64,000 nt of DNA, from NCBI GenBank assembly GCA_964016885.1, contig OZ024746.1, forward strand, positions 64,914,001-64,978,000, read 5' to 3'. The notes under the pieces are model-generated. The model made no database searches. It was not told where the DNA came from and saw only the letters and a program-made list of their open reading frames with translations. Made by a program: the position numbers and the translations under genes. Positions 29,490-63,350 of this stretch are shown here, piece by piece (positions within the stretch are counted from its first letter, which is position 1; each line of letters starts with the position of its first letter). The DNA is from Eledone cirrhosa (Eukaryota).

Positions 29490-30093
29490 TGGGAGTTTGT
29501 GCAGTGGGGTATAGTGGAGGGTGGTGCTGGGTGATAGCTCGAATGTTTTTTTCCAGTTCTTTTGCCAGATTCATTATGGCTAAAAAAGAGGAAGAAGTTT
29601 CCTGTTTAGAAGACTGTTGGTGACTGTGGTAGTGGTTATTTTTATGTAGGTTATGGTTTTTGTTTTTGCTTTTATTTTTAATTTTATTTTCATTTGTCCG
29701 ACGGGTCCCCGGGAGATGGGTAAAGGGACAATCCCGGTCTAAACACAATCTGTCTCGCAGGGAAAAGTGGCAGATTTGTGGATTCCTTGTTTGAGTTATT
29801 GGTGGTTGTGTTGGTGTTAAATTAGAGTATGTATTATGGTGGTGGCTGTTTGTGGGGATAGATCGTTTTGTCCTAGGTAAATGGGTGAATTTGCAGCCAC
29901 TATCCGTACATATTCTATAGCGTAGAGAGTAGCGGCAAATGATGGGGTTTCGAGTGGGTGGGTATGTGGGTGTGTGTGTTGTGAGAGGTGTAGATGATGG
30001 TTTGAGTAGGATTTGACGACCTTTGTGGACTGTGGGAGGGAGAGTTCTTGTTCTGGTATTAGAAGGTAAATTCCTTGACATAGCAGTAGACAA
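29461..30093 (-). CDS. LINE ORF1 C-terminal part with two CCCH-type zinc fingers
   Basis: CRYSLRYRICTDSGCKFTH and CHFSLRDRLCLDRDCPFTH (C-x8-C-x4-C-x3-H); directly upstream of and overlapping ORF2. Confidence 0.75.
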   Translation of the reverse strand: MSTAMSRNLPSNTRTRTLPPTVHKGRQILLKPSSTPLTTHTPTYPPTRNPIICRYSLRYRICTDSGCKFTHLPRTKRSIPTNSHHHNTYSNLTPTQPPITQTRNPQICHFSLRDRLCLDRDCPFTHLPGTRRTNENKIKNKSKNKNHNLHKNNHYHSHQQSSKQETSSSFLAIMNLAKELEKNIRAITQHHPPLYPTAQTPIAAINKQTN

Positions 30094-30199
30094 AAATGTT
30101 GTAGTAGTAGTAGTAGGCAGAGAAGATGTTGGCAGTGGTGATATTTGGACTGCTGGGCCAGAGAAAGGATGTGGCGTTTCATGCTATGAGACATAGGCT

Positions 30200-30433
30200 A
30201 AAGCTTCACGGCACAGGCATTGCTTTATATCTGGAGATCTCTCTGCACTTGTCATCACATGGAAGCATGGGCCCAGCACTATGTGTCAATAATTGTCACA
30301 AGTGTAGTGTTTGTACCAAAGTTTTCAAGTCGCTGGCTGGACTAAAAAGTCACACTTGTTCAGCGCATCGGTAGGGGTTCTCCTACATGGATATAAAGTA
30401 GTGGCCGTACTCGAAAACGAGTTGGCAGCCACC
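30200..30433 (+). mobile_element. NA-600 copy 7, fused directly head-to-head with the LINE
   Basis: AAAGCTTCACGGCACAGG begins at 30200 with no TA spacer. Confidence 0.9.
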
Positions 30434-30883: not shown

Positions 30884-40991
<10,108 letters not shown>

Positions 40992-42690
40992 GCATTCTTC
41001 AATTTCCTCGGCCACACGTACAAACAGATCTCTGGGCTACCTATGGGCTCTAGTCTGTCCGGCATACTTGCGATGTCGTACATGGACCACCTGGAACGCA
41101 AGGCACTCAACACCTGTCAACCCAACGCCGTCGCCTTCTACTCCAGATACGTTGATGACATACTGATACTCACTTCTTCCCGGGAGATGGCGAATGAAAT
41201 TCACCAAATCTTCAACGACACTGACCATCACGCGAATTCACCATCGAACACCCTGGAGAAGACGGGTCACTCGCCCTCCTCGACTTCCGTATCAACATCT
41301 CGGAAGAAGGTGACATAAACACCACCTTCTATCGCAAGGCAGCGTGCAAGGACTTATTTGTGCATTACAACTCAGCCCTCCCCAACAACGCTAAGAGAGG
41401 CTATGTTCTAAATGAACTTACACGGATCACTAATAGATGCAGCGACCCGATGGGTGGTCTCACCCATACCACGTAATTCCGTAATCTAATCAAGTGTAAT
41501 GGATATCCCAAGCGACTGATTAACGGAATTAGAGACCCCAGACCCAATAGACAGACACCCACTAGAAACTTAGATAAAAGCAGGTGCTTCTTTAAATCCC
41601 CCACCTGAGTGAATATACCACGAACGCCATCCGCAGGGCCATACGGAGGGAGGGACTTGACATACATTTGGCCCACACAGGACCTTCGCTCCGAAGATGC
41701 CTCTCCAACAAACCCGACGAGTCAGATGGGACGTGTTCCCTCAGCAACTGCCCGATACGGGGGGCAGATTGCTTACGCACCTATGTCGTATATAAGATTC
41801 AATGCGATAAATGTAACAAGTTTTACATAGGTAGCACCATCCGACCCCTACATGTTCGTATCAAGGAACATGTCAACACCAACGCATCTTCCTTCCGTAA
41901 ACACATCCTTAAATGCGGAAACCCACAGGGCCGACCCTTGGTCACAGTCCTAGCGACTGAACGCAGCATCGGATCCTTAAGGATAAAGGAAGCACTTGTT
42001 ATTAAGAACCTCAGACCCCCACTTAACAACCGGGCTGAGAGAAATGAGCTGACATGGCTAATTAAACCATAGTGACCAGTAACAGCCCCTACGGTCTACT
42101 GTCTTTCACACACACGCACTTATATGTATACCCAAACACATACACACACACATCTATATTTATACACGCACACATGTTTATACACCTTTCACACCCTTTG
42201 ATTTCCATCTTCTACGGCCCACTATCTTTCACACACACACACACTCACATACATACGCACATACACATATACACACACAGTTACACACACATATATATTT
42301 ACACACACATATTTTACGGCTTTCACACGCTAGCGCACCCTATTGATTTAACCCAATTGGTCAGTAGCTTTTGCCACAGCCTATCACGCGCACGCGCATT
42401 CTTTCCCTCGTTTGAATTTTTCCCCATAACGGCATTTCCTATGTTTTAACGACAATACAACTTTCTCCGGCTTAGCTTGTTCCCCCCCCCCCCCTTTTGG
42501 AACTTTCCCCCGTTGATGGGCGTGAGCCCGAAATATTGGAATTAAATCTCCACTACGGTAACCCTTCTACCTTTGTTTTGTTTTCATTTTCGTTTCTCTC
42601 AATTTTCACTTTTCTCCTATTTCTCACTCACTTCCTACCTCGAGATTTCCCATCTGCATTGTTGTGGCTTTCTAAACTACATATTTTATA
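40992..42690 (+). mobile_element. Penelope-like element PLE-3, 5'-truncated and degenerate
   Basis: [22 protein letters not shown], then frameshift/stops; VVY..FYIGST GIY-YIG in ORF 41668-42072; CA-rich 3' UTR. Confidence 0.9.
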
Positions 42691-42825: not shown

Positions 42826-43419
42826 ATAACTTTGAAATGTTTTGGCCAGTATTGGCCCAGGCCATGTCTAACTTAATAGCACCACCTGGCAAAGTCTTTC
42901 AATTCAGGATTTGGGCACCATGGCCCATTCGAGAAGAGAATTACTGTTTGCGGAGACATATCCGGGTGTGGGTGGTTTGTCCGGGATTACTTGGAGGAAT
43001 TTGTCCAAAGACTTCTTGAATTTTGTGTGGTCAGTTTCTGTTTTGACGTGTCCTGGTGTGATGTTGAAGAGAGCAGGGCCGATTGAGGTGAAATAATTGT
43101 GCCGTATTGTTGTTATGAGTTGCGATTTAGATTTTTGAATGGGACGGATAGCACGGGGCCCAAGCCTTGGGTGTATCTTGAAGGCGATGCCAACATCATT
43201 TGGGCAGTGATGATGGAACATTTTCCACATCATGCAGATAATATAACGCTCACGGCGACGTTGGAGTGAGTAAAGTTTCAGGTTTTCTAATCGACCCCAG
43301 TAGTCAAGGTCTGACATGCCATCTATCTTTTTCGTGATTGCCCTTTGAGGAGCTTCAAGTTTCATGATACTTTGTTTTGTGTGGGGGGAGACCACAGTGG
43401 ACAACAGTATTCAAGGTGT
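42826..43419 (-). mobile_element. Third copy (3' 0.6 kb) of the APE-RT LINE
   Basis: ORF 42904-43404 is nearly identical to the ORF2 C-terminus; same 3' end. Confidence 0.93.
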
Positions 43420-43649
43420 ATCTATATATATATATGTATGTATGTATATATATATATATATGTATGTATATATATATATATATGTATGTATATATATATG
43501 TATGTATATATATATGTATGTATATATATATATATGTATATATATATGTATCTGTATATATATATATGTATGTGTGTATATATATATGTATGTATATATA
43601 TATATATATATGTATATATATAAATATATATATATATATATGTATATAT

Positions 43650-43844
43650 ATAGGCACAAGTAAGACCCTGACGGCTGAGCTGAAGCCGTTTCGACGGCTA
43701 ATTCTGTACACAATTAGCCGTCGAAACGGCTTGAGCTCAGCCGTCGGGGTCTTACTTGTTCCTATTACCCACTCTACTACCCTAAGTATTGAGTAATTTG
43801 GTGCGTTATGGTCCACTTGTTTCTTTACCACATTTCCTTCGTTA
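43650..43844 (+). repeat. 116-bp palindrome plus 80-bp unique tail (possible retroelement 3' tail with inverted arm)
   Basis: Arms 43650-43703 and 43712-43765, 3 mismatches, 8-nt loop CTGTACAC. Confidence 0.8.
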
Positions 43845-44437: not shown

Positions 44438-47400
44438 AGGGTTTCTCTTAGTAGCTTTTTCATGTCGTTAATATTATGATGGTTCCTTCTCTTAGTAGCT
44501 TTTTCATGTCGTTAATATTATGATGTTCCCTGCTGTATTAGCGTTAAATTTTCCCTGCTGTATTAGCGATAAATTTTCGAGGGTTTCTCTTAGTAGCTTT
44601 TTTCATGACGTTATTATTGTTAATTTTACTGATGTAGTATTAACTTATTAACTTGGATATTTACCATGCGGTATTCTAATCCTATTGTATCTCTCTCAGT
44701 TATTTACCATGCGACCCTCAGTTCCTACCCCCCCCCCCTCTATGCACTTCTTTAAGGCTTACTACCCTGTCTTTAACCTAATTCATTCAATCTGAAAATA
44801 TTGAAGAGATAAGACACTTTGCCATTCTTCTCTGCTAAAATGTACCACTGAGCTGATTCAAATTTTCCCAGCCAGCCATCCACCTAATCTACGAAGGTAT
44901 TTTAGCCTACATATTGTCGTTAATATTATGATGTTCCCTGCTGTATTAGCGTTAAATTTTCCCTGCTGTATTAGCGATAAATTTTCGAGGGTTTCTCTTA
45001 GTAGCTTTTTCATGTCGTTAATATTATGATGTTCCCTGCTGTATTAGCGTTAAATTTTCCCTGCTGTATTAGCGATAAATTTTCGAGGGTTTCTCTTAGT
45101 AGCTTTTTTCATGACGTTATTATTGTTAATTTTACTGATGTAGTATTAACTTATTAACTTGGATATTTACCATGCGGTATTCTAATCCTATTGTATCTCT
45201 CTCAGTTATTTACCATGCGACCCTCAGTTCCTACCCCCCCCCCCCCCTCTATGCACTTCTTTAAGGCTTACTACCCTGTCTTTAACCTAATTCATTCAAT
45301 CTGAAAATATTGAAGAGATAAGACACTTTGCCATTCTTCTCTGCTAAAATGTACCACTGAGCTGATTCAAATTTTCCCAGCCAGCCATCCACCTAATCTA
45401 CGAAGGTATTTTAGCCTACATATTGTCGTTAATATTATGATGTTCCCTGCTGTATTAGCGTTAAATTTTCCCTGCTGTATTAGCGATAAATTTTCGAGGG
45501 TTTCTCTTAGTAGCTTTTTCATGTCGTTAATATTATGATGTTCCCTGCTGTATTAGCGTTAAATTTTCCCTGCTGTATTAGCGATAAATTTTCGAGGGTT
45601 TCTCTTAGTAGCTTTTTTCATGACGTTATTATTGTTAATTTTACTGATGTAGTATTAACTTATTAACTTGGATATTTACCATGCGGTATTCTAATCCTAT
45701 TGTATCTCTCTCAGTTATTTACCATGCGACCCTCAGTTCCTACCCCCCCCCCCTCTATGCACTTCTTTAAGGCTTACTACCCTGTCTTTAACCTAATTCA
45801 TTCAATCTGAAAATATTGAAGAGATAAGACACTTTGCCATTCTTCTCTGCTAAAATGTACCACTGAGCTGATTCAAATTTTCCCAGCCAGCCATCCACCT
45901 AATCTACGAAGGTATTTTAGCCTACATATTGTCGTTAATATTATGATGTTCCCTGCTGTATTAGCGTTAAATTTTCCCTGCTGTATTAGCGATAAATTTT
46001 CGAGGGTTTCTCTTAGTAGCTTTTTTCATGTCGTTAATATTATGATGTTCCCTGCTGTATTAGCGTTAAATTTTCCCTGCTGTATTAGCGATAAATTTTC
46101 GAGGGTTTCTCTTAGTAGCTTTTTTCATGACGTTATTATTGTTAATTTTACTGATGTAGTATTAACTTATTAACTTGGATATTTACCATGCGGTATTCTA
46201 ATCCTATTGTATCTCTCTCAGTTATTTACCATGCGACCCTCAGTTCCTACCCCCCCCCCCTCTATGCACTTCTTTAAGGCTTACTACCCTGTCTTTAACC
46301 TAATTCATTCAATCTGAAAATATTGAAGAGATAAGACACTTTGCCATTCTTCTCTGCTAAAATGTACCACTGAGCTGATTCAAATTTTCCCAGCCAGCCA
46401 TCCACCTAATCTACGAAGGTATTTTAGCCTACATATTGTCGTTAATATTATGATGTTCCCTGCTGTATTAGCGTTAAATTTTCCCTGCTGTATTAGCGAT
46501 AAATTTTCGAGGGTTTCTCTTAGTAGCTTTTTCATGTCGTTAATATTATGATGTTCCCTGCTGTATTAGCGTTAAATTTTCCCTGCTGTATTAGCGATAA
46601 ATTTCGAGGGTTTCTCTTAGTAGCTTTTTTCATGACGTTATTATTGTTAATTTTACTGATGTAGTATTAACTTATTAACTTGGATATTTACCATGCGGTA
46701 TTCTAATCCTATTGTATCTCTCTCAGTTATTTACCATGCGACCCTCAGTTCCTACCCCCCCCTCTATGCACTTCTTTAAGGCTTACTACCCTGTCTTTAA
46801 CCTAATTCATTCAATCTGAAAATATTGAAGAGATAAGACACTTTGCCATTCTTCTCTGCTAAAATGTACCACTGAGCTGATTCAAATTTTCCCAGCCAGC
46901 CATCCACCTAATCTACGAAGGTATTTTAGCCTACATATTGTCGTTAATATTATGATGTTCCCTGCTGTATTAGCGTTAAATTTTCCCTGCTGTATTAGCG
47001 ATAAATTTTCGAGGGTTTCTCTTAGTAGCTTTTTCATGTCGTTAATATTATGATGTTCCCTGCTGTATTAGCGTTAAATTTTCCCTGCTGTATTAGCGAT
47101 AAATTTTCGAGGGTTTCTCTTAGTAGCTTTTTTCATGACGTTATTATTGTTAATTTTACTGATGTAGTATTAACTTATTAACTTGGATATTTACCATGCG
47201 GTATTCTAATCCTATTGTATCTCTCTCAGTTATTTACCATGCGACCCTCAGTTCCTACCCCCCCCCCTCTATGCACTTCTTTAAGGCTTACTACCCTGTC
47301 TTTAACCTAATTCATTCAATCTGAAAATATTGAAGAGATAAGACACTTTGCCATTCTTCTCTGCTAAAATGTACCACTGAGCTGATTCAAATTTTCCCAG

Positions 47401-47615
47401 CCAGCCATCCACCTAATCTACGAAGGTATTTTAGCCTACATATTGTCGTTAATATTATGATGTTCCCTGCTGTATTAGCGTTAAATTTTCCCTGCTGTAT
47501 TAGCGATAAATTTTCGAGGGTTTCTCTTAGTAGCTTTTTTCATGACGTTATTATTGTTAATTTTACTGATGTAGTATTAACTTGGATATTTACCATGCGA
47601 CCCTCAGTTCCTACC
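44438..47615 (+). repeat. ~505-bp tandem repeat (six units plus a partial) contiguous with the RTE 5' UTR
   Basis: CACCTAATCTACG recurs at 44881, 45390, 45896, 46403, 46905 and 47410; each unit has an internal ~90-bp duplication. Confidence 0.93.
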
Positions 47616-47858
47616 TCACAATTTCCCTCCCCCCCACCCCCACACACCACCATAGTCTATTCGACCAATCAAACCTAGCATGCCATTTCCACTGCTGCTG
47701 CTGCTACTACCTGCCTAACTAACTCTCTCCTCCTCTGGCGCATCCCAACACACCCTGCCATTACCCCACCACCACTGTCCTTCTAGCCCTCAATTTTCCC
47801 ACCGTTAGGGATGGATGAGCTGGGAATACACGAGCAACTCTGAATCAATAGATGAAAT

Positions 47859-50800
47859 ATGAATCTGCGAGCTACCAAGCACCCACGTGAAGCGCCAACC
47901 CAGAGACCCTCCCCTACGAGTGTCGACAAATGCCCAAAACTCCGAGTTGGTACCATCAATGTAGGCTCAATGAAAGGAAGAGCAGGAGAAATCGTAGAAA
48001 TGCTAGAGCGAAAGGAAGTTGATGTATGCTGTGTGCAAGAGACTAGATGGAGAGGAGGGTCTGCTAGAGTCCTTGTAGGAAAAAGCCAGTGCTACAAATT
48101 TTTCTGGGTGGGAAATGACGATGGGATGGGTGGTGTAGGTATACTATTAGCTGACAAGTGGGTAGATAAAGTAATCTCAGTGTACAGGGTAAATGCAAGA
48201 ATCATTAAACTCAGACTAGTCCTGAATAAGACAATTACCACAATAATATCAGCTTACGCACCCCAATCGGGGCTGCCAGACGAACTTAAGGATAGGTTTT
48301 ACGAGTCCCTAATACACACTACTGCTCTAACAGACGACAAGGACTTCCTAATCATTGCAGGAGATTTTAACGGACACGTAGGTAAACACTGCGACGGCTT
48401 CAATAGAGTACATGGAGGCCATGGAGTTGGCACAAGGAATGAGGAAGGATTCAGACTTCTAGAATTCTGCGACGCCAATGACATGTCGATATGTAACACA
48501 AACTTTAAAAAACCCGACAACCACCTGATCACCTATAGATCAGGGGAGCACTCTAGTCAGTTAGATTTTATCCTCATCAGAGGACGTGACAGATGGACGG
48601 TCGTAAACACAAAAGCCTTCCCTAGTGAGGAATGTACATCCCAACATAGCTTAGTTGTCAGCGACCTCACGGTCAGAACTAGACGAGCCCTGAAACAGAG
48701 GCCAACCTGGAGAAGAAAGATCTGGAAGCTGAAAGTCCCCTCAACCAGTAACAGATTTAAAGATATTTTACTCAACGCCTACGACAGTAAAGAAGAACAG
48801 ATAGAGACATTTAACGTAGAAGAGAACTGGGAGTTCCTAAAAAATAACTTACTAGAGGCGACGGATGAGGTTTGTGGCTGGAGTAAGACCTCAAGCAGGA
48901 GGAGAGTGACTTGGTGGTGGAACAATAAGGTAGATGAAGCAGTCAAGGCCAAGAGACAGGCATGGAAAGAATGGAAGAACGGGGGGAGCAGGGTACATTA
49001 CATAGAGACCAAGAGGGAAGCTAGGCGACAAGTATACTTAGCTAGGAGGGAAGCAGAGGATAGAAAATTCAAGCATGTTTTACAACGTGAGGACCAGAAA
49101 CAGGAGGTATTCAAGATTGCGAGGCAGTGTGTCAGAGATAGTTGTGATGTCATTGGAGAGAAGTGTATCCGGAATGATAAAGGTGAGCTTGCCCTCACAA
49201 GTGCTGAGAAGAAAGATGCATGGAAGAGTCATTATGATAGATTACTAAATGAGGAGAATGCATGGGAAGAAGAGACCCTACCCCACGTAGACCCTATAGA
49301 GGGACCAGCAGTACAAGTCAGCGGCAGCGTAGTAAGTAAGGCAATCAGAGATATGAAGATAGGGAAGGCAACCGGTCCATCGGGTATAGCTGCCGAGATG
49401 CTGAAGGCATCTGGGTCTGTAGGTCACACTATAACCACACGTATCGTTAACCAGGTAATACTAGAGGGGGCCATACCAAAAGATTGGTGCAGTAGCATCA
49501 TTGTCAACTGCTACAAAGGTAAAGGCGATGCACTAGATAGAGGAAACTATAGAGGTATAAAGTTGATGGACCAGGTCATGAAAGTAACAGAAAGAGTTAT
49601 AGCACAGCTGATTAGGGACCGGGTGAATATAGACGAGATGCAATTTGGGTTTGTTCCAGGGAAAGGCACCACTGATGCGCTCTTCCTTGTGAGGCAATTA
49701 CAGGAAAAGTACCTAGCTAAAAGTAAGCCACTCTACTTGGCATTTGTCGACCTTGAGAAAGCCTTTGACAGAGTTCCACGTGCAGTAATCTGGTGGGCTC
49801 TTAGAAAACTAGGAGTAGATGAATGGCTTGTGAAAGCGGTACAAGCCATGTATAGGGGAGCAGTCAGCAAAGTTAGGATTGGCAATGAGTATAGCGAGGA
49901 ATTTAGCGTACAGGTTGGGGTCCACCAGGGCTCTGTTCTTAGCCCTCTCCTGTTCATCATAGTCCTGCAGGCAATAACGGAGGAGTTTAAGACCGGATGC
50001 CCATGGGAACTCCTGTATGCTGATGACCTCGCACTCATAGCTGAATCTATGGTAGAACTAGAGAATAAATTCCAAACCTGGAAGCAGGGACTAGAGAGAA
50101 AGGGCCTCAAAGTCAACATGACAAAGACTAAGGTCCTTATAAGTATACGAGAAAACAGAACCCAGATCCCCTCAGGGAAATGGCCTTGCTCAGTATGTAG
50201 GAAAGGTGTAGGTAGGAACTCCATTCTTTGCCCCAAATGCAAACAATGGGTACACAAGAGATGTAGCGGGATCTCAGGAAGCTTAATTAAGAATGTAGGA
50301 TTCACATGCAGCAGCTGTGCTGAAACAGCAAGCAAACAGCCACAGGAAACAAGTACCACCAATCTCTGGGAGGGCCCTGTAGAAACAGTAGACAGCTTCT
50401 GCTACCTAGGTGACCGAATTAGCAACGGAGGTGGGTGCTCAGAAAGTACAATAACTAGGGTAAGAACGGGATGGAAGAAGTTTAGGGAACTACTACCACT
50501 GCTAGCTGCAAAAGGCTTCTCCCTCAGAATGAAAGGCAGACTGTATGATGCGTGTATCCGAACAGCGATGTTGCATGGTAGTGAGACCTGGGCGCTGAAG
50601 GTGGAAGACCTACGTAGATTAGAGAGAAACGAAGCCTGCATGCTCCGATGGATGTGTAACAGTAATATACGTGAACGACAAAGCATAAATGAATTGAGAG
50701 AGAGACTGAGCATAAGAGGAATCAAATGCTGCGTGCAGGAGAGGCGGTTACGCTGGTATGGACATGTGATGCGTATGAAGGATGACAGCTGCATAAAAAG

Positions 50801-50978
50801 GTGCAGAGCACTAGAAGTTGATGGAAACCGCGGAGTGGGGAGACCCAAGATGACTTGGGATGAGGTGATAAAAGCCGACCTTACCCAACTACACCTCTCA
50901 AAGTCAATGACACACGACCGTGACTTCTGGCGTCACGCAGTAATACAGGGTACCCGACCTCCCATGGGTACATGCTGA
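47859..50978 (+). CDS. Intact RTE-type LINE ORF: APE endonuclease + RT + PHD finger
   Basis: ATG start, 1039 aa; GTINVG, VQETRW, SAYAPQ, AGDFNGHVG, LDFIL, SQHSLV; [23 protein letters not shown]; CSVC..CPKC..HKRC..CSSC; GRPKMTW. Confidence 0.96.
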   Translation: MNLRATKHPREAPTQRPSPTSVDKCPKLRVGTINVGSMKGRAGEIVEMLERKEVDVCCVQETRWRGGSARVLVGKSQCYKFFWVGNDDGMGGVGILLADKWVDKVISVYRVNARIIKLRLVLNKTITTIISAYAPQSGLPDELKDRFYESLIHTTALTDDKDFLIIAGDFNGHVGKHCDGFNRVHGGHGVGTRNEEGFRLLEFCDANDMSICNTNFKKPDNHLITYRSGEHSSQLDFILIRGRDRWTVVNTKAFPSEECTSQHSLVVSDLTVRTRRALKQRPTWRRKIWKLKVPSTSNRFKDILLNAYDSKEEQIETFNVEENWEFLKNNLLEATDEVCGWSKTSSRRRVTWWWNNKVDEAVKAKRQAWKEWKNGGSRVHYIETKREARRQVYLARREAEDRKFKHVLQREDQKQEVFKIARQCVRDSCDVIGEKCIRNDKGELALTSAEKKDAWKSHYDRLLNEENAWEEETLPHVDPIEGPAVQVSGSVVSKAIRDMKIGKATGPSGIAAEMLKASGSVGHTITTRIVNQVILEGAIPKDWCSSIIVNCYKGKGDALDRGNYRGIKLMDQVMKVTERVIAQLIRDRVNIDEMQFGFVPGKGTTDALFLVRQLQEKYLAKSKPLYLAFVDLEKAFDRVPRAVIWWALRKLGVDEWLVKAVQAMYRGAVSKVRIGNEYSEEFSVQVGVHQGSVLSPLLFIIVLQAITEEFKTGCPWELLYADDLALIAESMVELENKFQTWKQGLERKGLKVNMTKTKVLISIRENRTQIPSGKWPCSVCRKGVGRNSILCPKCKQWVHKRCSGISGSLIKNVGFTCSSCAETASKQPQETSTTNLWEGPVETVDSFCYLGDRISNGGGCSESTITRVRTGWKKFRELLPLLAAKGFSLRMKGRLYDACIRTAMLHGSETWALKVEDLRRLERNEACMLRWMCNSNIRERQSINELRERLSIRGIKCCVQERRLRWYGHVMRMKDDSCIKRCRALEVDGNRGVGRPKMTWDEVIKADLTQLHLSKSMTHDRDFWRHAVIQGTRPPMGTC

Positions 50979-52697: not shown

Positions 52698-52800
52698 GTA
52701 GGAGGTGAGTTTTATTGTAGTACAATAAAGCAATGCAGATATCGGATAAGAAGCACTCTACAGTTTGTGGGACTGGAGTATGCATAATATAAGATCAAAA
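52698..52800 (-). mobile_element. Inverted 3'-terminal piece of PLE-4
   Basis: Reverse complement of 52784-52800 equals TTTTGATCTTATATTAT at 55521-55537, the point where the + arm ends. Confidence 0.7.
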
Positions 52801-52814
52801 TTGGTATCTTCATT

Positions 52815-54194
52815 TTGAACTCTTTGAGTCGGAAAATTCCTCAACTTCGCGGTGGAATTTATCGTGACGATGGACTCTTTACTATCCTAAATTGCAATAT
52901 AGTTAAACTTAATATTATTAAGAACAATATACGTAATCTCTTTAACCAACATAACCTAAAAATTGAATTTGATAATAGTACCAAACTAGCTAATTTCTTG
53001 GATGTATCTCTTAATCTTGACACTGGCCTATATTACCCTTACCATAAAAACAATGAGAATCTTAATTATGTTAACTTTAAATCTAACCATCCTACCAATA
53101 TCAAGAATGCTATAGTTAATAATATTGGAAATAGAATATCTAACATATCTTCTAATAAAAACATCTTTGATGCTAACGCCAATTACTATAATAACGCACT
53201 TTCTAAAGCTGGCTATCCAGATAAAATCAAATATAATAAAGAAACAAATTCTAGGAAAACTTACAGTAGAATATTTAATCATAACCATTCCAATAATTTT
53301 AATAAAAGACCTAGATACAAAAACATAATCTGGTATAATGCTCCTTTCTCCATCTCTATTAATAACAATATTCCTAAATTATTTTTTAGTGCCTTAAATA
53401 AATGCTTCCCTCCCTCACATATCTATAGTAAAATATTTAACAAACACACCATTAAATTTTCGTATTCTACATCCTCCAATATTTCCAACATCATTTCTAA
53501 ACACAACAACAAAATATTAAATACTAAATCTCTTCCTTCCAATATTGAATCTCATAATAACAATAATAGTACTCCTGACGTCATTGTAAACCCTAGGCTA
53601 ACTTCTGTAAACCCAAATGCAACGTCAAACACAACTTCGCTAAATGTTCATAATCCAACTCTAAATCAAGAAACTATTATTCCTATTATTCCTATCGCAA
53701 ACAACTTCTCCAATCCAATTCCTTCTATAGATAACACTAGATCACTCATTAATAATCTCTCTAATTGCAACTGCCGCATTAAAAATAAATGTCCTCTCAA
53801 CAACCATTGCCTCGATAAAAACTTAATTTATGAATGTAAAATTATAACTAGCACCAACTCCTTCACCTATTTTGGCTCCACTTCCACCTCTTTTAAAGCT
53901 CGTCTCTATAATCATCATTCATCTTTCAAATACAAACTTAAAAGAACTAACACTGCTCTCTCAGAACTCATATGGTCCTTAAAAGACAAAAACATTAAAT
54001 ATAACATCTTTTGGAAAAAGATTTCTTCTGCATCCTCGTACTTGAACAGTTCTCTATCTAAAATCTGTAATCTCTGCCTAAATGAAAAATTTACCATTAT
54101 CTCTAACCTAGAATCCATAATAAATAGACGCTCGGATTTGTTTTCCATCTGCCTTCATAAATTCCATAGAACTTTTCACAAAGTATACAGTTAA
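52815..54194 (+). CDS. PLE-4 partial RT + GIY-YIG endonuclease
   Basis: 459-aa open frame with the motifs above. Confidence 0.85.
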   Translation: MNSLSRKIPQLRGGIYRDDGLFTILNCNIVKLNIIKNNIRNLFNQHNLKIEFDNSTKLANFLDVSLNLDTGLYYPYHKNNENLNYVNFKSNHPTNIKNAIVNNIGNRISNISSNKNIFDANANYYNNALSKAGYPDKIKYNKETNSRKTYSRIFNHNHSNNFNKRPRYKNIIWYNAPFSISINNNIPKLFFSALNKCFPPSHIYSKIFNKHTIKFSYSTSSNISNIISKHNNKILNTKSLPSNIESHNNNNSTPDVIVNPRLTSVNPNATSNTTSLNVHNPTLNQETIIPIIPIANNFSNPIPSIDNTRSLINNLSNCNCRIKNKCPLNNHCLDKNLIYECKIITSTNSFTYFGSTSTSFKARLYNHHSSFKYKLKRTNTALSELIWSLKDKNIKYNIFWKKISSASSYLNSSLSKICNLCLNEKFTIISNLESIINRRSDLFSICLHKFHRTFHKVYS

Positions 54195-55430
54195 TATTCA
54201 ATTTTTTATCAATTTAGAATCTTTTCTCAAAGGCACATATACATACACCTCTTTAAAATATACCCATCTACCTTACTTTAAAGGGCATTATACACTCTAT
54301 AGTACTCGTTTATTCATTTACCTCATCCTATCTTCTCGTAAAACAATAACATTTGTTTTTGACATTTTGAATATTCATCCGCAATCATTATTATTTTTTT
54401 TCCCTCTATCATAAATCTTTTTAATCTCAATTTCATCCTTAATTTATTATTATATATATTTTTTTTAATATATACTCATATATTCTTTAAAATATACCCA
54501 TCTACCTTACTTTAAAGGGCATTATACACTCTATAATACCCGTTTACTCATCACCCTCATTATATCTCTTCGTAAAACAATAACATTTGTTTTTGACATT
54601 TTGAGTATTCATCCGCAATCATTATTATTTTTTCTCTCTATCATAAATCTTTTTAATCTCAATTTCATCCTTAATTTATTATTATTATTTTTTTCTCCCC
54701 ATCAACGAACTCATTATTAATACATATGAATTCAATATAAAAACTTTAACTTCTCATTATTTTTCTCAAATCCTATACATAAACATTTTCTCTTTGCTAA
54801 TTTTAAGATTCCTACATTTCTCCTTTTGAATATTCACCCACAATTATTATTTTTTTCTCTCTATCTCCATACATAATCTCCCTTCGTTATTTTTTTCTCT
54901 CTATCTCCTTACATAATTTCCCTTCGTTAATTTTCAAATTCCTTTAATTTATACATTATCTTCCAACGGTTCCCAACCTCTCTATATTAAAACATTATAT
55001 CTTTTTCTCAATTATAAAAACTATCTCTTTCTCTCTATCACCCATCTCTCCCTTTCCACCTTCACTCTCATCTCCTCCCCTTTTTTTCATCCTTTCCACC
55101 CCCACCCCTCCCTAAATATAATATATTTTTTCCTCGCACATATCCTCCCTTCGTTAATTTTCAAAATTTTTAATTTATACAGTATCTTCCAACGGTTTTC
55201 AACCCCTCTATATAAAATATATCTCCTCTCTGTTATAAAAACTATCTCTTTCTCTCTATCACCCATCTCTCCCTCTCATCTCCTTCCCTTTTCATCCTTT
55301 TCTCTCCCCCCCTCTCTAAATAAAATATTTTTCCCAATATCACACATCAATCTAAAACCACTTTTCATATGTTGATTTAAAACTGCACTATCAACAAGTG
55401 TTTTTTTAGCCTTCATATCATGTTCTCCTG

Positions 55431-55497
55431 TTTTATCTGATGAAAACACAAATATTATTGTTTGATGATGTTTGTTTTTGAAATGCGCATAATAAAA
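55431..55497 (+). ncRNA. Type I hammerhead ribozyme (PLE-4)
   Basis: TTTTAT-CTGATGA-long stem II (ACAAATATTAT/ATGATGTTTGT)-GAAA-TGCGCA-TA-ATAAAA; palindromic stem III ATGCGCAT. Confidence 0.82.
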
Positions 55498-55574
55498 TAT
55501 ATTGAACTCCTTTAACCATCTTTTGATCTTATATTATATACATATATATATATATATATACATATATATCTACA

Positions 55575-57992: not shown

Positions 57993-58587
57993 TTGGTGCT
58001 ACTGGTAACATGTATCCCAGTACAACCTGTCTCATGGTCTGGTCGTTGGCGACTAAACTGGCAACCTCACCAATGTTTCTTGGTGAGGTGTGTGACTTTG
58101 GACATCCTGCAGGACTAAAAACAAAACCTGTCAAAGGGCAAAGGAGCTCTTGAGTGTCAATGGCCATCCAAAATCACTGGGAGAGATGACCCCTTAGCCT
58201 TTGTCAAGGCAGAATTCTAGGAGAAGGAAAACTCTGATATAACACCTGCAACCCTGATGGTATCCAATGATGTTGACTTGTTCTTCTTTTTGGTAAATAT
58301 CATCTTGGTTAAGAGAGTGGGACTGGCTTTGTGCAGTGCCTTTTCTCACTATAAAAGCTTTACGGCACAGGCATTGCTTTATATGTGGAGATCTCTCTGC
58401 ACTTGTCGTCACATGGTACCATGGGCCCAGCACTATGTGCCAATAATTGTCACAAGTATGGTGTTTGTACCAGAGTTTTCAAGTCGGTGGCTGGACTAAA
58501 AAGTCACACTCGTTCAGCGCATCGGTAGGAGTTCTCCTACATGGATATAGAGTAGTGGCCGTACTCGAAAACGAGTTGGCAGCCACC
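57993..58587 (+). mobile_element. NA-600 copy 8
   Basis: Sequence identity with the other copies; same 3' end. Confidence 0.9.
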
Positions 58588-58670
58588 ATATATATGTGTA
58601 TATATATATATATATGTATGTATATATATGTAGGTATGTATATATATATATGTATATATATGTAGGTATG

Positions 58671-58703
<33 letters not shown>

Positions 58704-58858
58704 GTATATATATATATATATATGTATATATATGTATATATATATATGTATGTGTATATATATATATATATGTATATCTATGTATGTATGTATATATATA
58801 TATATGTATATCTATGTATGTATGTATATATATATATATCTATGTATGTATGTATATA

Positions 58859-58891
<33 letters not shown>

Positions 58892-58943
58892 ATATATATA
58901 TCTATGTATATATATATATCTATGTATATATATATATCTATGT

Positions 58944-58997
<54 letters not shown>

Positions 58998-58998
58998 G

Positions 58999-59105
<107 letters not shown>

Positions 59106-59121
59106 GTATATATATATATGT

Positions 59122-59169
<48 letters not shown>

Positions 59170-59194
59170 GTGTATGTATGTGTATGTATGTATG

Positions 59195-59225
<31 letters not shown>

Positions 59226-59231
59226 GTATAT

Positions 59232-62200
59232 AAATTGGAATAAATGCTCTGAAATAGCGATATATATGTGAATATAGACATAGAATATTCGAAAATATTC
59301 TGTATGTTTATAATAAACATTTTGAAGACCTAATCGCTATAGAATAGAATACGTCACGTATTACAATTAGATTCTCGATAAAAGCAAGGGAAGTAATCTA
59401 CGCGTTTCATTCTTATTAGAAATCTTCAGGACTACATATCCAGTGCTTTTATCGAGAATGACACAGCTAGAGACTTATAGAATACTTAGCTGTGTACAGG
59501 AACTGGTTTGAAAGAGCGGTTGCCGGTCCGGCAGAAATTAGAAATTGGAATAAATGCTCTGAAATAGCGATATATATGTGAATATAGACATAGAATATTC
59601 GAAAATATTCTGTATGTTTATAATAAACATTTTGAAGACCTAATCGCTATAGAATAGAATACGTCACGTATTACAATTAGTTTCTCGATAAAAGCAAGGG
59701 AAGTAATCTATGCGTTTCATTCTTATTAGAAATCTTCAGGACTACATATCCAGTGCTTTTATCGAGAATGACACAGCTAGAGACTTATAGAATACTTAGC
59801 TGTGTACAGGAACTGGTTTGAAAGAGCGGTTGCCGGTCCGGCAGAAATTAGAAATTGGAATAAATGCTCTGAAATACCGATATATATGTGAATATAGACA
59901 TAGAATATTCGAAAATATTCTGTATGTTTATAATAAACATTTTGAAGACCTAATCGCTATAGAATAGAATACGTCACGTATTACAATTAGATTCTCGATA
60001 AAAGCAAGGGAAGTAATCTACGCGTTTCATTCTCATTAGAAATCTTCAGGACTACATATCCAGTGCTTTTATCGAGAATGACACAGCTAGAGACTTATAG
60101 AATACTTAGCTGTGTACAGGAACTGGTTTGAAAGAGCGGTTGCCGGTCCGGCAGAAATTAGAAATTGGAATAAATGCTCTGAAATAGCGATATATATGTG
60201 AATATAGACATAGAATATTCGAAAATATTCTGTATGTTTATAATAAACATTTTGAAGACCTAATCGCTATAGAATAGAATACGTCACGTATTACAATTAG
60301 ATTCTCGATAAAAGCAAGGGAAGTAATCTACGCGTTTCATTCTTCTAGGAAATCTTCAGGACTACATATCCAGTGCTTTTATCGAGAATGACACAGCTAG
60401 AGACTTATAGAATACTTAGCTGTGTACAGGAACTGGTTTGAAAGAGCGGTTGCCGGTCCGGCAAAAATTAGAAATTGGAATAAATGCTCTGAAATAGCGA
60501 TATATATGTGAATATAGACATAGAATATTCGAAAATATTCTGTATGTTTATAATAAACATTTTGAAGACCTAATCGCTATAGAATAGAATACGTCACGTA
60601 TTACAATTAGATTCTCGATAAAAGCAAGGGAAGTAACCTACGCGTTTCATTCTTATTAGAAATCTTCAGGATTACATATCCAGTGCTTTTATCGAGAATG
60701 ACACAGCTAGAGACTTATAGAATACTTAGCTGTGTACAGGAACTGGTTTGAAAGAGCGGTTGCCGGTCCGGCAGAAATTAGAAATTGGAATAAATGCTCT
60801 GAAATAGCGATATATATGTGAATATAGACATAGAATATTCGAAAATATTCTGTATGTTTATAATAAACATTTTGAAGACCTAATCGCTATAGAATAGAAT
60901 ACGTCACGTATTACAATTAGATTCTCGATAAAAGCAAGGGAAGTAATCTACGCGTTTCATTCTTATTAGAAATCTTCAGGACTACATATCCAGTGCTTTT
61001 ATCGAGAATGACACAGCTAGAGACTTATAGAATACTTAGCTGTGTACAGGAACTGGTTTGAAAGAGCGGTTGCCGGTCCGGCAGAAATTAGAAATTGGAA
61101 TAAATGCACTGAAATAGCGATATATATGTGAATATAGACATAGAATATTCGAAAATATTCTGTATGTTTATAATAAACATTTTGAAGACCTAATCGCTAT
61201 AGAATAGAATACGTCACGTATTACAATTAGATTCTCGATAAAAGCAAGGGAAGTAATCTACGCGTTTCATTCTTATTAGAAATCTTCAGGACTACATATC
61301 CAGTGCTTTTATCGAGAATGACACAGCTAGAGACTTATAGAATACTTAGCTGTGTACAGGAACTGGTTTGAAAGAGCGGTTGCCGGTCCGGCAGAAATTA
61401 GAAATTGGAATAAATGCTCTGAAATAGCGATATATATGTGAATATAGACATAGAATATTCGAAAGTATTCTGTATGTTTATAATAAACATTTTGAAGACC
61501 TAATCGCTATAGAATAGAATACGTCACGTATTACAATTAGATTCTCGATAAAAGCAAGGGAAGTAATCTACGCGTTTCATTCTTATTAGAAATCTTCAGG
61601 ACTACATATCCAGTGCTTTTATCGAGAATGACACAGCTAGAGACTTATAGAATACTTAGCTGTGTACAGGAACTGGTTTGAAAGAGCGGTTGCCGGTCCG
61701 GCAAAAATTAGAAATTGGAATAAATGCTCTGAAATAGCGATATATATGTGAATATAGACATAGAATATTCGAAAATATTCTGTATGTTTATAATTTCTAA
61801 TTTCTGCCGGACCGGCAACCGCTCTTTCAAACCAGTTCCTGTACACAGCTAAGTATTCTATAAGTCTCTAGCTGTGTCATTCTCGATAAAAGCACTGGAT
61901 ATGTAGTCCTGAAGATTTCTAATAAGAATGAAACGCGTAGATTACTTCCCTTGCTTTTATCGAGAATCTAATTGTAATACGTGACGTATTCTATTCTATA
62001 GCGATTAGGTCTTCAAAATGTTTATTATAAACATACAGAATATTTTCGAATATTCTATGTCTATATTCACATATATATCGCTATTTCAGAGCATTTATTC
62101 CAATTTCTAATTTCTGCCGGACCGGCAACCGCTCTTTCAAACCAGTTCCTGTACACAGCTAAGTATTCTATAAGTCTCTAGCTGTGTCATTCTCGATAAA

Positions 62201-62386
62201 AGCACTGGATATGTAGTCCTGAAGATTTCTAATAAGAATGAAACGCGTAGATTACTTCCCTTGCTTTTATCGAGAATCTAATTGTAATACGTGACGTATT
62301 CTATTCTATAGCGATTAGGTCTTCAAAATGTTTATTATAAACATACAGAATATTTTCGAATATTCTATGTCTATATTCACATATAT
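59232..62386. repeat. Retrozyme-like 310-bp tandem array 2 (about 8.3 units RNA-minus, then about 1.9 units RNA-plus; inversion at 61792-61794)
   Basis: Same 310-bp unit with array-specific fixed variants; hammerhead core CTGAAGA. Confidence 0.95.
61903..61945 (+). ncRNA. Hammerhead ribozyme of the array-2 unit (representative copy)
   Basis: GTAGTC-CTGAAGA-tTTCT aata AGAAt-GAAA-CGCG-TA-GATTAC. Confidence 0.87.
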
Positions 62387-62545
62387 GTATATATATATAT
62401 GTATATATATATATGTATATATGTATATATATATATGTATATATGTATGTATATATGTATATATATATATATGTATATATATATATGTATATATATATAT
62501 GTATATATATATATGTATATATATATATATGTATATATATATATG

Positions 62546-62578
<33 letters not shown>

Positions 62579-62653
62579 GTATATATATGTATATATATAT
62601 ATATGTATATTTATATATATGTAAATATATATATATGTATATATATTTACATG

Positions 62654-63350
62654 TTTTAGGTGTGTATTAAAATAGGTTCTTACAAATTGCTGGGTTTGTG
62701 TCACATGTAAAACAGAATTCGTCAACTTTTCGTCGTACTGATTAGTTTGGGAGTAAAATGGATGTATTCGTCTGGATGAGTTTTCTACGCAATTTCTAAC
62801 CCTCTCTGTTGCTATACACAATTATAATTTCATTCTTCTATTCTTGGAGACTTTGGGATTAAATAAGAATTTACGCAATTAATTAATTAATAATTTAACC
62901 TATTATCAAACAGCTGTAAGTATTTAAACATTGAAACTTTCTGATTTGATTAGTTGCAGAATTCAACCCCCGTATGCCACGCAAATGTAGTTATGATGGA
63001 CTGTATTACTGCGATAAACATCACCTGGATGATATTTTCTATATTCCGGCAGAAATGGTTTTTAATTGGAAGTTCGATATGTTTAAAGGTAAGAATGGAT
63101 TTAATTGTTTGATTGGTTGATTGACTTTCTGTTTTTTTTAAAAATATGTATTCAAAGAAGGGTAGTGGATTGGCATAGAGTTATGGCCTTTTACATTATG
63201 ACTTCAATCACGCCGAGGTTGGCTTTGCCTTTCATCCTTACGGGATCGAAAAAATAAACTAATCAGTACAACGAAATGTTAACGGATTCTGTTTTACATG
63301 TGACACAAACCCAGCAATTTGTAAGAACCTATTTTAATACACACCTAAAA
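62654..63350. repeat. ~95-bp inverted repeat pair (62654-62748 / 63256-63350), possible MITE or foldback
   Basis: Arms are reverse complements with about 4 mismatches. Confidence 0.75.
63170..63257 (+). mobile_element. Degenerate SINE remnant (Nin-DC/Deu-like core)
   Basis: GCCGAGGTTGGCTTTGCCTTTCATCCTTACGGGATCGA resembles the recalled core CTTTGCCTTTCATCCTTTCGGGGTCGAT. Confidence 0.6.

Follow-up and report, generated by a model that had tools for sequence, protein, structure and literature searches.

Two arrays of a 310-bp repeat, found in a 64-kb stretch of DNA that we analysed as a whole (the window), represent a real and young family of the animal non-LTR retrozyme kind, and both probably entered their TA tracts through a Penelope-like element (PLE) whose reverse transcriptase (RT) and GIY-YIG endonuclease acted from both DNA strands. 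The retrozyme kind itself is already known, and the arrays add one more family to it. The argument for a PLE as mobiliser is drawn here from the anatomy of the junctions, which is separate from, and more direct than, the co-occurrence, shared ribozymes and phylogeny that make up the published case for PLEs.

Structure of the arrays and of the repeat unit

Array 2 extends from 59232 to 62386 and has a period of 310 according to Tandem Repeats Finder. Positions in the repeat are counted along the strand with the hammerhead motif, with unit 1 at window position 61792, so that unit 311 is again unit 1. The left arm of array 2 (59232-61794, minus strand) comprises 8.3 copies that run from a 5' start at unit 233 to a 3' end at unit 315, with eight hammerhead motifs and 13 scattered mismatches. 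Its right arm (61792-62386, plus strand) comprises 1.9 copies from unit 311 (=1) to unit 285, with two hammerhead motifs and no mismatch. The flanks of the array consist of (TA/TATG)n on the left (58588-59231) as well as on the right (62387-62654), and about 30 nt at the left end (59232-59261, minus strand; unit 286-315) form a "tail" that is not present at the right end. Array 1 lies at a distance of 42 kb, and its left arm (12439-15211, minus strand) comprises 8.9 copies from unit 304 to unit 286 with no mismatch, while its right arm (15209-16707, plus strand) comprises 4.8 copies from unit 59 to unit 317 and terminates in a tail at 16677-16707.

A base-by-base walk gave the same layout for both arrays, with a minus-strand left arm and a plus-strand right arm whose 5' ends meet in the centre and whose 3' ends face the (TA/TATG)n tracts on the outside. 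An inverted, 5'-truncated copy at the 5' end and a tail of 30-31 nt at one end only are thus found in two of two arrays, and these two are the only complete arrays seen. The original prediction had placed a strand switch at a 3-nt microhomology within each array, and this is confirmed by the overlap TAA at the inversion joint of array 1 (15209-15211) and the overlap AAT at the head-to-head joint of array 2 (61792-61794). That the arrays go back to two separate insertions, as also predicted, is borne out by their haplotypes, inversion points, arm lengths and flanks, all of which differ.

The unit has a GC content of 0.34-0.35 and is non-coding; its longest ATG-initiated open reading frame (ORF) has 30 aa. 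As it encodes neither an RT nor a GIY-YIG endonuclease, the repeat must be non-autonomous. Its predicted fold is better than those of 100 out of 100 shuffled sequences (z -5.55). In these respects it resembles the animal non-LTR retrozymes as described in the available text of two papers (Cervera and de la Pena 2020, PMC7229834; Li et al., preprint 10.64898/2026.07.22.740005), with which it shares a short non-coding tandem unit (310 bp here, within a range of about 150-450 bp for the kind), a low GC content (about 35%), one type I motif per unit and the lack of an LTR. A further likeness is the very high abundance in the best-matching run. Run X1 yielded 634 contigs; most positions of the unit have a summed depth of 3-6 x 10^5, a value that is not a copy number, and several distinct junctions are present. 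X1 may be the window's own sample, which means that it covers other loci but does not represent an independent organism. Inverted arms, a terminal tail and fixed end sites, all present here, are not described for retrozyme arrays in the available text of the same two papers, and a literature search that covered mostly freely readable main texts without supplements found no report of inverted arms together with tails in retrozyme arrays. For the retrozymes of coral, mussel and axolotl, the accessible literature demonstrates expression, cleavage and circles; for the present family these are putative.

The hammerhead motif

In the right arm of array 2, a type I hammerhead motif is located at 61903-61945 (plus strand). 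Stem I is formed by 61903-61908 with 61940-61945, the core CUGAAGA begins at 61909, and stem II, with a U.U at its base, is followed by GAAA and by a minimal stem III that includes the palindrome ACGCGU. From the motif CUGANGA and the GUA triplet, the cut is predicted after 61939, that is after unit 148. A predicted outer helix of 16 bp (61879-61967, plus strand; unit 88-103 with 161-176) surrounds the hammerhead. In a motif search, the core, stems I-III and the GUA triplet were recovered in 24 of 24 copies, one of them with an altered stem III, and hammerhead positions 10.1-11.1 are A-U or U.U, not G-C. Rfam at its gathering thresholds returned no match in the 64-kb window, and the match of the motif to HH9 is weak (17 bits and E 0.26, where the gathering score is 52), so that the type I assignment rests on motif and fold. 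A window-wide Rfam scan by E-value gave mostly matches of TA repeats to microRNA models among the best 150 of 950 matches.

Stem III consists of a single pair and the palindromic loop, which in cofolding is predicted to pair between two copies and not within one. Axolotl HHR_Amex1 likewise combines a minimal helix III with a palindromic loop, and this form of stem III needs dimers in axolotl, according to the available text of PMC7229834. Eight of nine predicted frog retrozyme dimers failed to cleave in vitro, as stated in the accessible part of preprint 10.64898/2026.07.22.740005. Given this result and a motif score far under the Rfam threshold, activity of the putative ribozyme is not to be assumed. 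Run X1 contains one-base insertions two bases past the predicted cut site (61939-61942), each at about 1% of the depth, and one low-depth contig that skips 45 nt beginning exactly at this site. These are possibly weak traces of copying across a ligation junction.

Sequence variants and the fold

Arrays 1 and 2 are distinguished by six fixed differences, at units 49, 97, 122, 125, 132 and 275. The original prediction had named three of them as respecting the fold, and all three exist: T/A at the variable core position (unit 122), C/T in loop II (unit 132) and G/A in the outer helix (unit 97), which exchanges G.U and A-U. However, on the model structure the full set divides into one pair-keeping, four unpaired and one pair-breaking difference. 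The latter, A to T at unit 125, converts the first stem II pair from A-U to U.U and lowers the predicted pairing of stem II from about 0.92 to about 0.16. One pair-breaking difference in six is not significantly below the baseline of 51% for all substitutions or 31% for transitions, and 25% of 300 random six-change sets equalled or bettered the energy change of the six. Selection on the fold is therefore unsupported by these data, and a test of the covariation claim gave no significant result (one of six breaking against about 50%). Six of 12 distinct single-copy changes in array 2 also break a modelled pair, and no compensatory double change is found. A-to-I editing as a source of variants was considered in view of the A/G at unit 97 in a long helix, and it was rejected as A to G shows no excess (two of 13 mismatches in array 2).

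In run X1, units 122, 125, 132 and 133 are polymorphic, and at unit 125 the U.U form constitutes the majority by depth, with the A form at 57k of 333k. For this reason, and since the same mismatch at the base of helix II has been described for axolotl HHR_Amex2 (PMC7229834, in its available text), the U.U form of array 2 is likely tolerated. The array 1 letters at 49, 97 and 275 are absent from those listed for X1 at the 1% level; of these positions, 49 and 97 are close to the borders of the stretch examined. The direction of change at unit 97 is thus probably from A-U to G.U, the reverse of the wobble-to-pair change that the original prediction had assumed.

Ends, tails and inner joints

The four outer ends are found at units 286 and 317 in array 1 and at units 315 and 285 in array 2, so that each array uses each of the two sites (285-286 and 315-317) once, 137-169 nt downstream of the predicted cut. 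This is in agreement with the original prediction, which had all four ends at the same two sites away from the ribozyme cut, and the simulated chance of such sharing under a uniform null is 0.0013. Priming at preferred internal sites is supported accordingly, and it matches the two-site "tail" of PLEs, which that prediction had not named. Its further proposal, priming through homology to TA-tract ends, holds for the site at unit 285-287, where the homology to the tract is 6-8 nt and the longest in the unit, but not for the site at unit 315-318 with 0-2 nt. The homology at 285-287 blurs the position of the end and could attract any TPRT enzyme. Immediately 3' of the second end site, a GC-rich hairpin of 5 bp is predicted (62115-62127, plus strand; unit 324-336), which is a candidate binding site for a reverse transcriptase.

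The same sites recur among the loose ends listed for the X1 contigs. Of the 634 contig records of X1 on one unit, 56 are only partly on it, and six of their 38 loose-end positions are listed. Among these six, the 3'-side loose ends are at unit 287 (62078; ten contigs, continuing in TA letters), at unit 302 (62093; six contigs, which seem to return to the unit sequence and to depart from it near 318-320) and at unit 318 (62109; one contig, TA letters), and the 5'-side loose ends are single contigs at units 151, 178 and 179, with TA letters at 178.

At the inner joints, an overlap of at least 3 nt occurs in 7% of all possible head-to-head joins of the unit, which gives 0.5% for both joints. Of the two arms, the one with its 3' end at 285-286 has its start at 304 in array 1 and at 311 in array 2, at most 14 nt from the 3' end of the other arm; the chance of this adjacency is 0.009-0.03, for two cases and with a test devised after the data had been seen. 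A start of this arm beside the priming site of the other arm is expected if both primers used one RNA, as in twin priming. Target-site duplications of non-LTR retrozymes, when present, are longer than 4 bp; the candidates of 13 and 20 nt seen here are indistinguishable from chance, as they are no better than matches between unrelated TA flanks, of which 22% of 360 pairs reach 13.

A Penelope-like element as probable mobiliser

In the sequence of events that we propose, an array would first be transcribed into a multimeric RNA, which the hammerheads, probably as dimers formed via the ACGCGU palindrome, would cut to monomers that may circularise. A PLE protein would then bind the RNA near unit 285-336 and nick both strands of AT-rich DNA. 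Copying would be primed by one nick at unit 285-287 and by its counterpart at unit 315-318, leaving the tail of about 30 nt at one end only. Both copies would traverse several units and stop, and their far ends would finally be joined via the 3-nt overlaps.

The layout and the ends of both arrays have counterparts in the literature on EN+ PLEs, as far as its available text goes. An inverted 5'-truncated copy is typical of PLE insertions, a tail of 30-40 bp is often present at one end only, and some PLE clades show a bias for insertion into (TA)n (Craig et al. 2021, PMC8557442). In experiments with a purified PLE protein, the two strands of an AT-rich DNA are both nicked and then extended. Synthesis begins on the RNA at two neighbouring internal positions, which delimit the tail and lie downstream of the type I hammerhead, and it needs no homology between RNA and target (Frangieh et al. 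2024, PMC11167929). The retrozyme differs from EN+ PLEs in having no ORF and in being repeated as many short identical units, where those PLEs form partial tandems of an element of 3-4 kb. Among Chlamys PLEs, non-autonomous members such as MRC1 are also non-coding, and their multicopy head-to-tail insertions are credited to the PLE machinery in the accessible text of PMC8557442. At the 3' end they are similar to their autonomous partner, and they belong to a clade mostly without canonical hammerheads, whereas the present unit has a hammerhead motif and, in the 64-kb window, no significant similarity to any PLE end (best E 0.24). PLEs were named as strong candidates for the mobiliser of animal retrozymes in PMC7229834, a hypothesis that is repeated in PMC8969392 and PMC7761336, and preprint 10.64898/2026.07.22.740005 argues for a PLE partner from co-occurrence and phylogeny; neither "tail" nor "priming" occurs in the available main text of that preprint.

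An internal control is provided by the window itself. Its two-armed element at 727-5639 has a long minus-strand arm ending at 727 and an inverted, 5'-truncated plus-strand arm that begins at about 4730 and ends at 5639 with about 56 extra nt, the same layout of two arms and one tail as in both arrays. We take this element to be a protein-coding PLE from its visible RT and GIY-YIG-type motifs, its hammerhead-like cores at 920 (minus) and 5389 (plus) and the general anatomy of PLEs. Pfam recognised neither of its two ORF pieces; two other fragments in the window pass the Pfam GIY-YIG cut-off. The element is near full length, with a break of the reading frame near 2404-2408 and an asparagine/threonine-rich insert, and its inverted second arm is only 87-95% identical to the first. 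The best relative of a coding element in the window is a protein labelled Octopus vulgaris (64% identity), which hints at, without establishing, a cephalopod or another mollusc as host. A short peptide at the tail of the coding PLE was considered as the start of the ORF and discarded, as it gave no convincing alignment to the N-termini of 20 homologues. Further PLE-like 3' fragments lie at 8774-10422, 40997-42684 and 52701-55534, and two of the PLE-like fragments have hammerhead-like cores near their 3' ends (10271 and 55437), the one at 10271 also with U.U at the base of stem II.

Since TA flanks are common to all insertions in this region, those of CR1-like and RTE-like elements included, the flanks are not diagnostic of a PLE, and a LINE of either kind might instead have moved the retrozyme RNA by ordinary twin priming, with chance pairing between TA ends and AT-rich RNA. 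Long ORFs with RT and AP endonuclease are indeed present in the window, also within TA tracts, and the longest TA homology of the unit is located at one of the two end sites. Moreover, in LINE-1 twin priming, as described in the available text of PMC2837659, two inverted fragments with outward 3' ends arise that overlap where they join, and one arm begins internally close to where the other was primed. Unlike in LINE-1, however, there is no poly(A) priming here, and fixed internal sites serve for both primings. LINE activity would not predict a further fixed site at a distance of 30 nt, with 0-2 nt of homology, that is used once per array and again in X1 contigs, and no LINE within the window has a 3' tail in common with the unit. 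We therefore consider mobilisation by a LINE to be unlikely.

Growth at the DNA level, either by unequal crossing-over or by reinsertion of rolling-circle DNA in fragile TA tracts, with the inversions as products of microhomology repair, would agree with the near-clonal array 1, with the recurrence of one array 2 variant four copies apart, and with the local amplification of PLE terminal sequence that is proposed in the accessible part of preprint 10.64898/2026.07.22.740005. But it leaves unexplained why the 3' ends of both arrays face outward, one at each of two sites, and why the coding PLE is laid out alike, and as the origin of the arrays we regard it as improbable as well; such processes may have added or homogenised copies after insertion. 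An assembly artefact in a low-complexity region is very improbable even though the region is mostly microsatellite and no strand-switch joint, those of the window included, is among the junctions listed for the X1 contigs, because the joints are not fold-back palindromes and the arms meet at different unit positions, because two distinct array haplotypes are each common to both arms, and because the same end sites appear in independently assembled contigs.

PLE priming thus remains the reading that we favour. A more specific form of it, which we advance tentatively, is that one PLE protein pair works on one and the same retrozyme RNA molecule and copies it simultaneously from the two DNA strands, the primer at the near site running through many units until it meets the start of the second primer at the far tail site. 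We think that this is possible rather than probable.

Circular or multimeric templates

Array 1 contains one mismatch in about 4270 nt and has a private haplotype that is common to both arms. Its 14 near-clonal copies fit a single monomer circle, or else a uniform parent array. Array 2 has 13 mismatches in 2563 nt of the left arm and none in 595 nt of the right arm, a distribution with a chance of 0.05-0.08 at a single rate. Seven of the 13 lie inside the 46-nt ribozyme (P 0.001, or 0.015 if a three-base loop change is counted once; test chosen post hoc), and in one copy stem I carries two changes that both preserve its pairing (simulated chance 0.002, again with a test chosen post hoc). The left arm of array 2 thus resembles a mosaic assembled from differing monomers. 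Such a pattern agrees better with a multimer transcript, or with gene conversion at a later time, than with one circle, and the circular template of the original prediction may therefore hold for one array only. A circular template of period four was rejected for array 2, as only one variant recurs at four-copy spacing. For purified PLE protein, uncut RNA is the main substrate according to the available text of PMC11167929.

Distribution and genomic context

Words of the unit were present in 20 of 24 listed runs (18 organism labels, 17 studies), which contained 61-100% of 26 sampled words. Two of the 17 non-A runs, X10 and X17, gave one contig each, one of 340 nt that closes on itself at depth 34 and one of 280 nt at depth 5, both with the array 1 letters at 122, 125 and 132. 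A sister run of organism B had no match in 12.8 million raw reads, about 1% of the run and too small a sample to count as a test. The occurrence of the unit, nearly unchanged, under 17 further organism labels (runs X4-X20) could mean that these are close relatives, that the unit was transferred horizontally, or that trace DNA from a carrier with many copies was present, and trace DNA explains it as well as true presence does. A pattern scan of metagenome and viral contigs with a 21-nt motif gave no match, and 47 metagenome loci matching a 19-nt motif were dismissed as chance, since none aligns beyond 29 nt.

About half of the window consists of (TA/TATG)n with a strong strand bias and a GC skew of up to +1.0. 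Almost all elements lie nested within this sequence, which suggests that one expanded microsatellite acts as an insertion sink. A SINE-like non-coding element is present in eight copies (8451-8597, 11439-11989, 19650-20199, 22570-23204, 23749-24332, 25589-26044, 30200-30432 and 57995-58586) of up to about 630 nt, which are 85-99% identical and in one orientation; one end is fixed and followed by CAT(AT)n, and the other is variably truncated. No tRNA gene was called in the window. A CR1-like element with one ORF of 1032 aa is represented by three pieces in both orientations that are 98-99% identical (26387-30432, 30995-32737 and 42829-43422). An RTE-like ORF of 1040 aa (47856-50975) is directly preceded at 44439-47599 by about six tandem copies of a unit of about 505 bp with internal subrepeats of 98 and 25 bp, in which a motif search found no hammerhead core. 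Short inverted-repeat elements are located at 5700-5860, with a TA tract in the centre, at 43653-43762 and at 62658-63346, the last being MITE-like with inverted ends of about 90 nt around a core of about 500 nt.

Implications for retrozymes and Penelope-like elements

The model of two primers on a single RNA, if it is true, would account for the inverted-plus-tail structure that PLE insertions show in general. The junctions would then identify PLEs as the elements that mobilise animal retrozymes and, together with the mosaic left arm of array 2, would point to uncut multimers alongside monomer circles as templates. As the family is young, abundant and protein-free and gives exact predicted priming sites, both the view of retrozymes as PLE parasites and the origin of the inverted ends of PLEs become testable.
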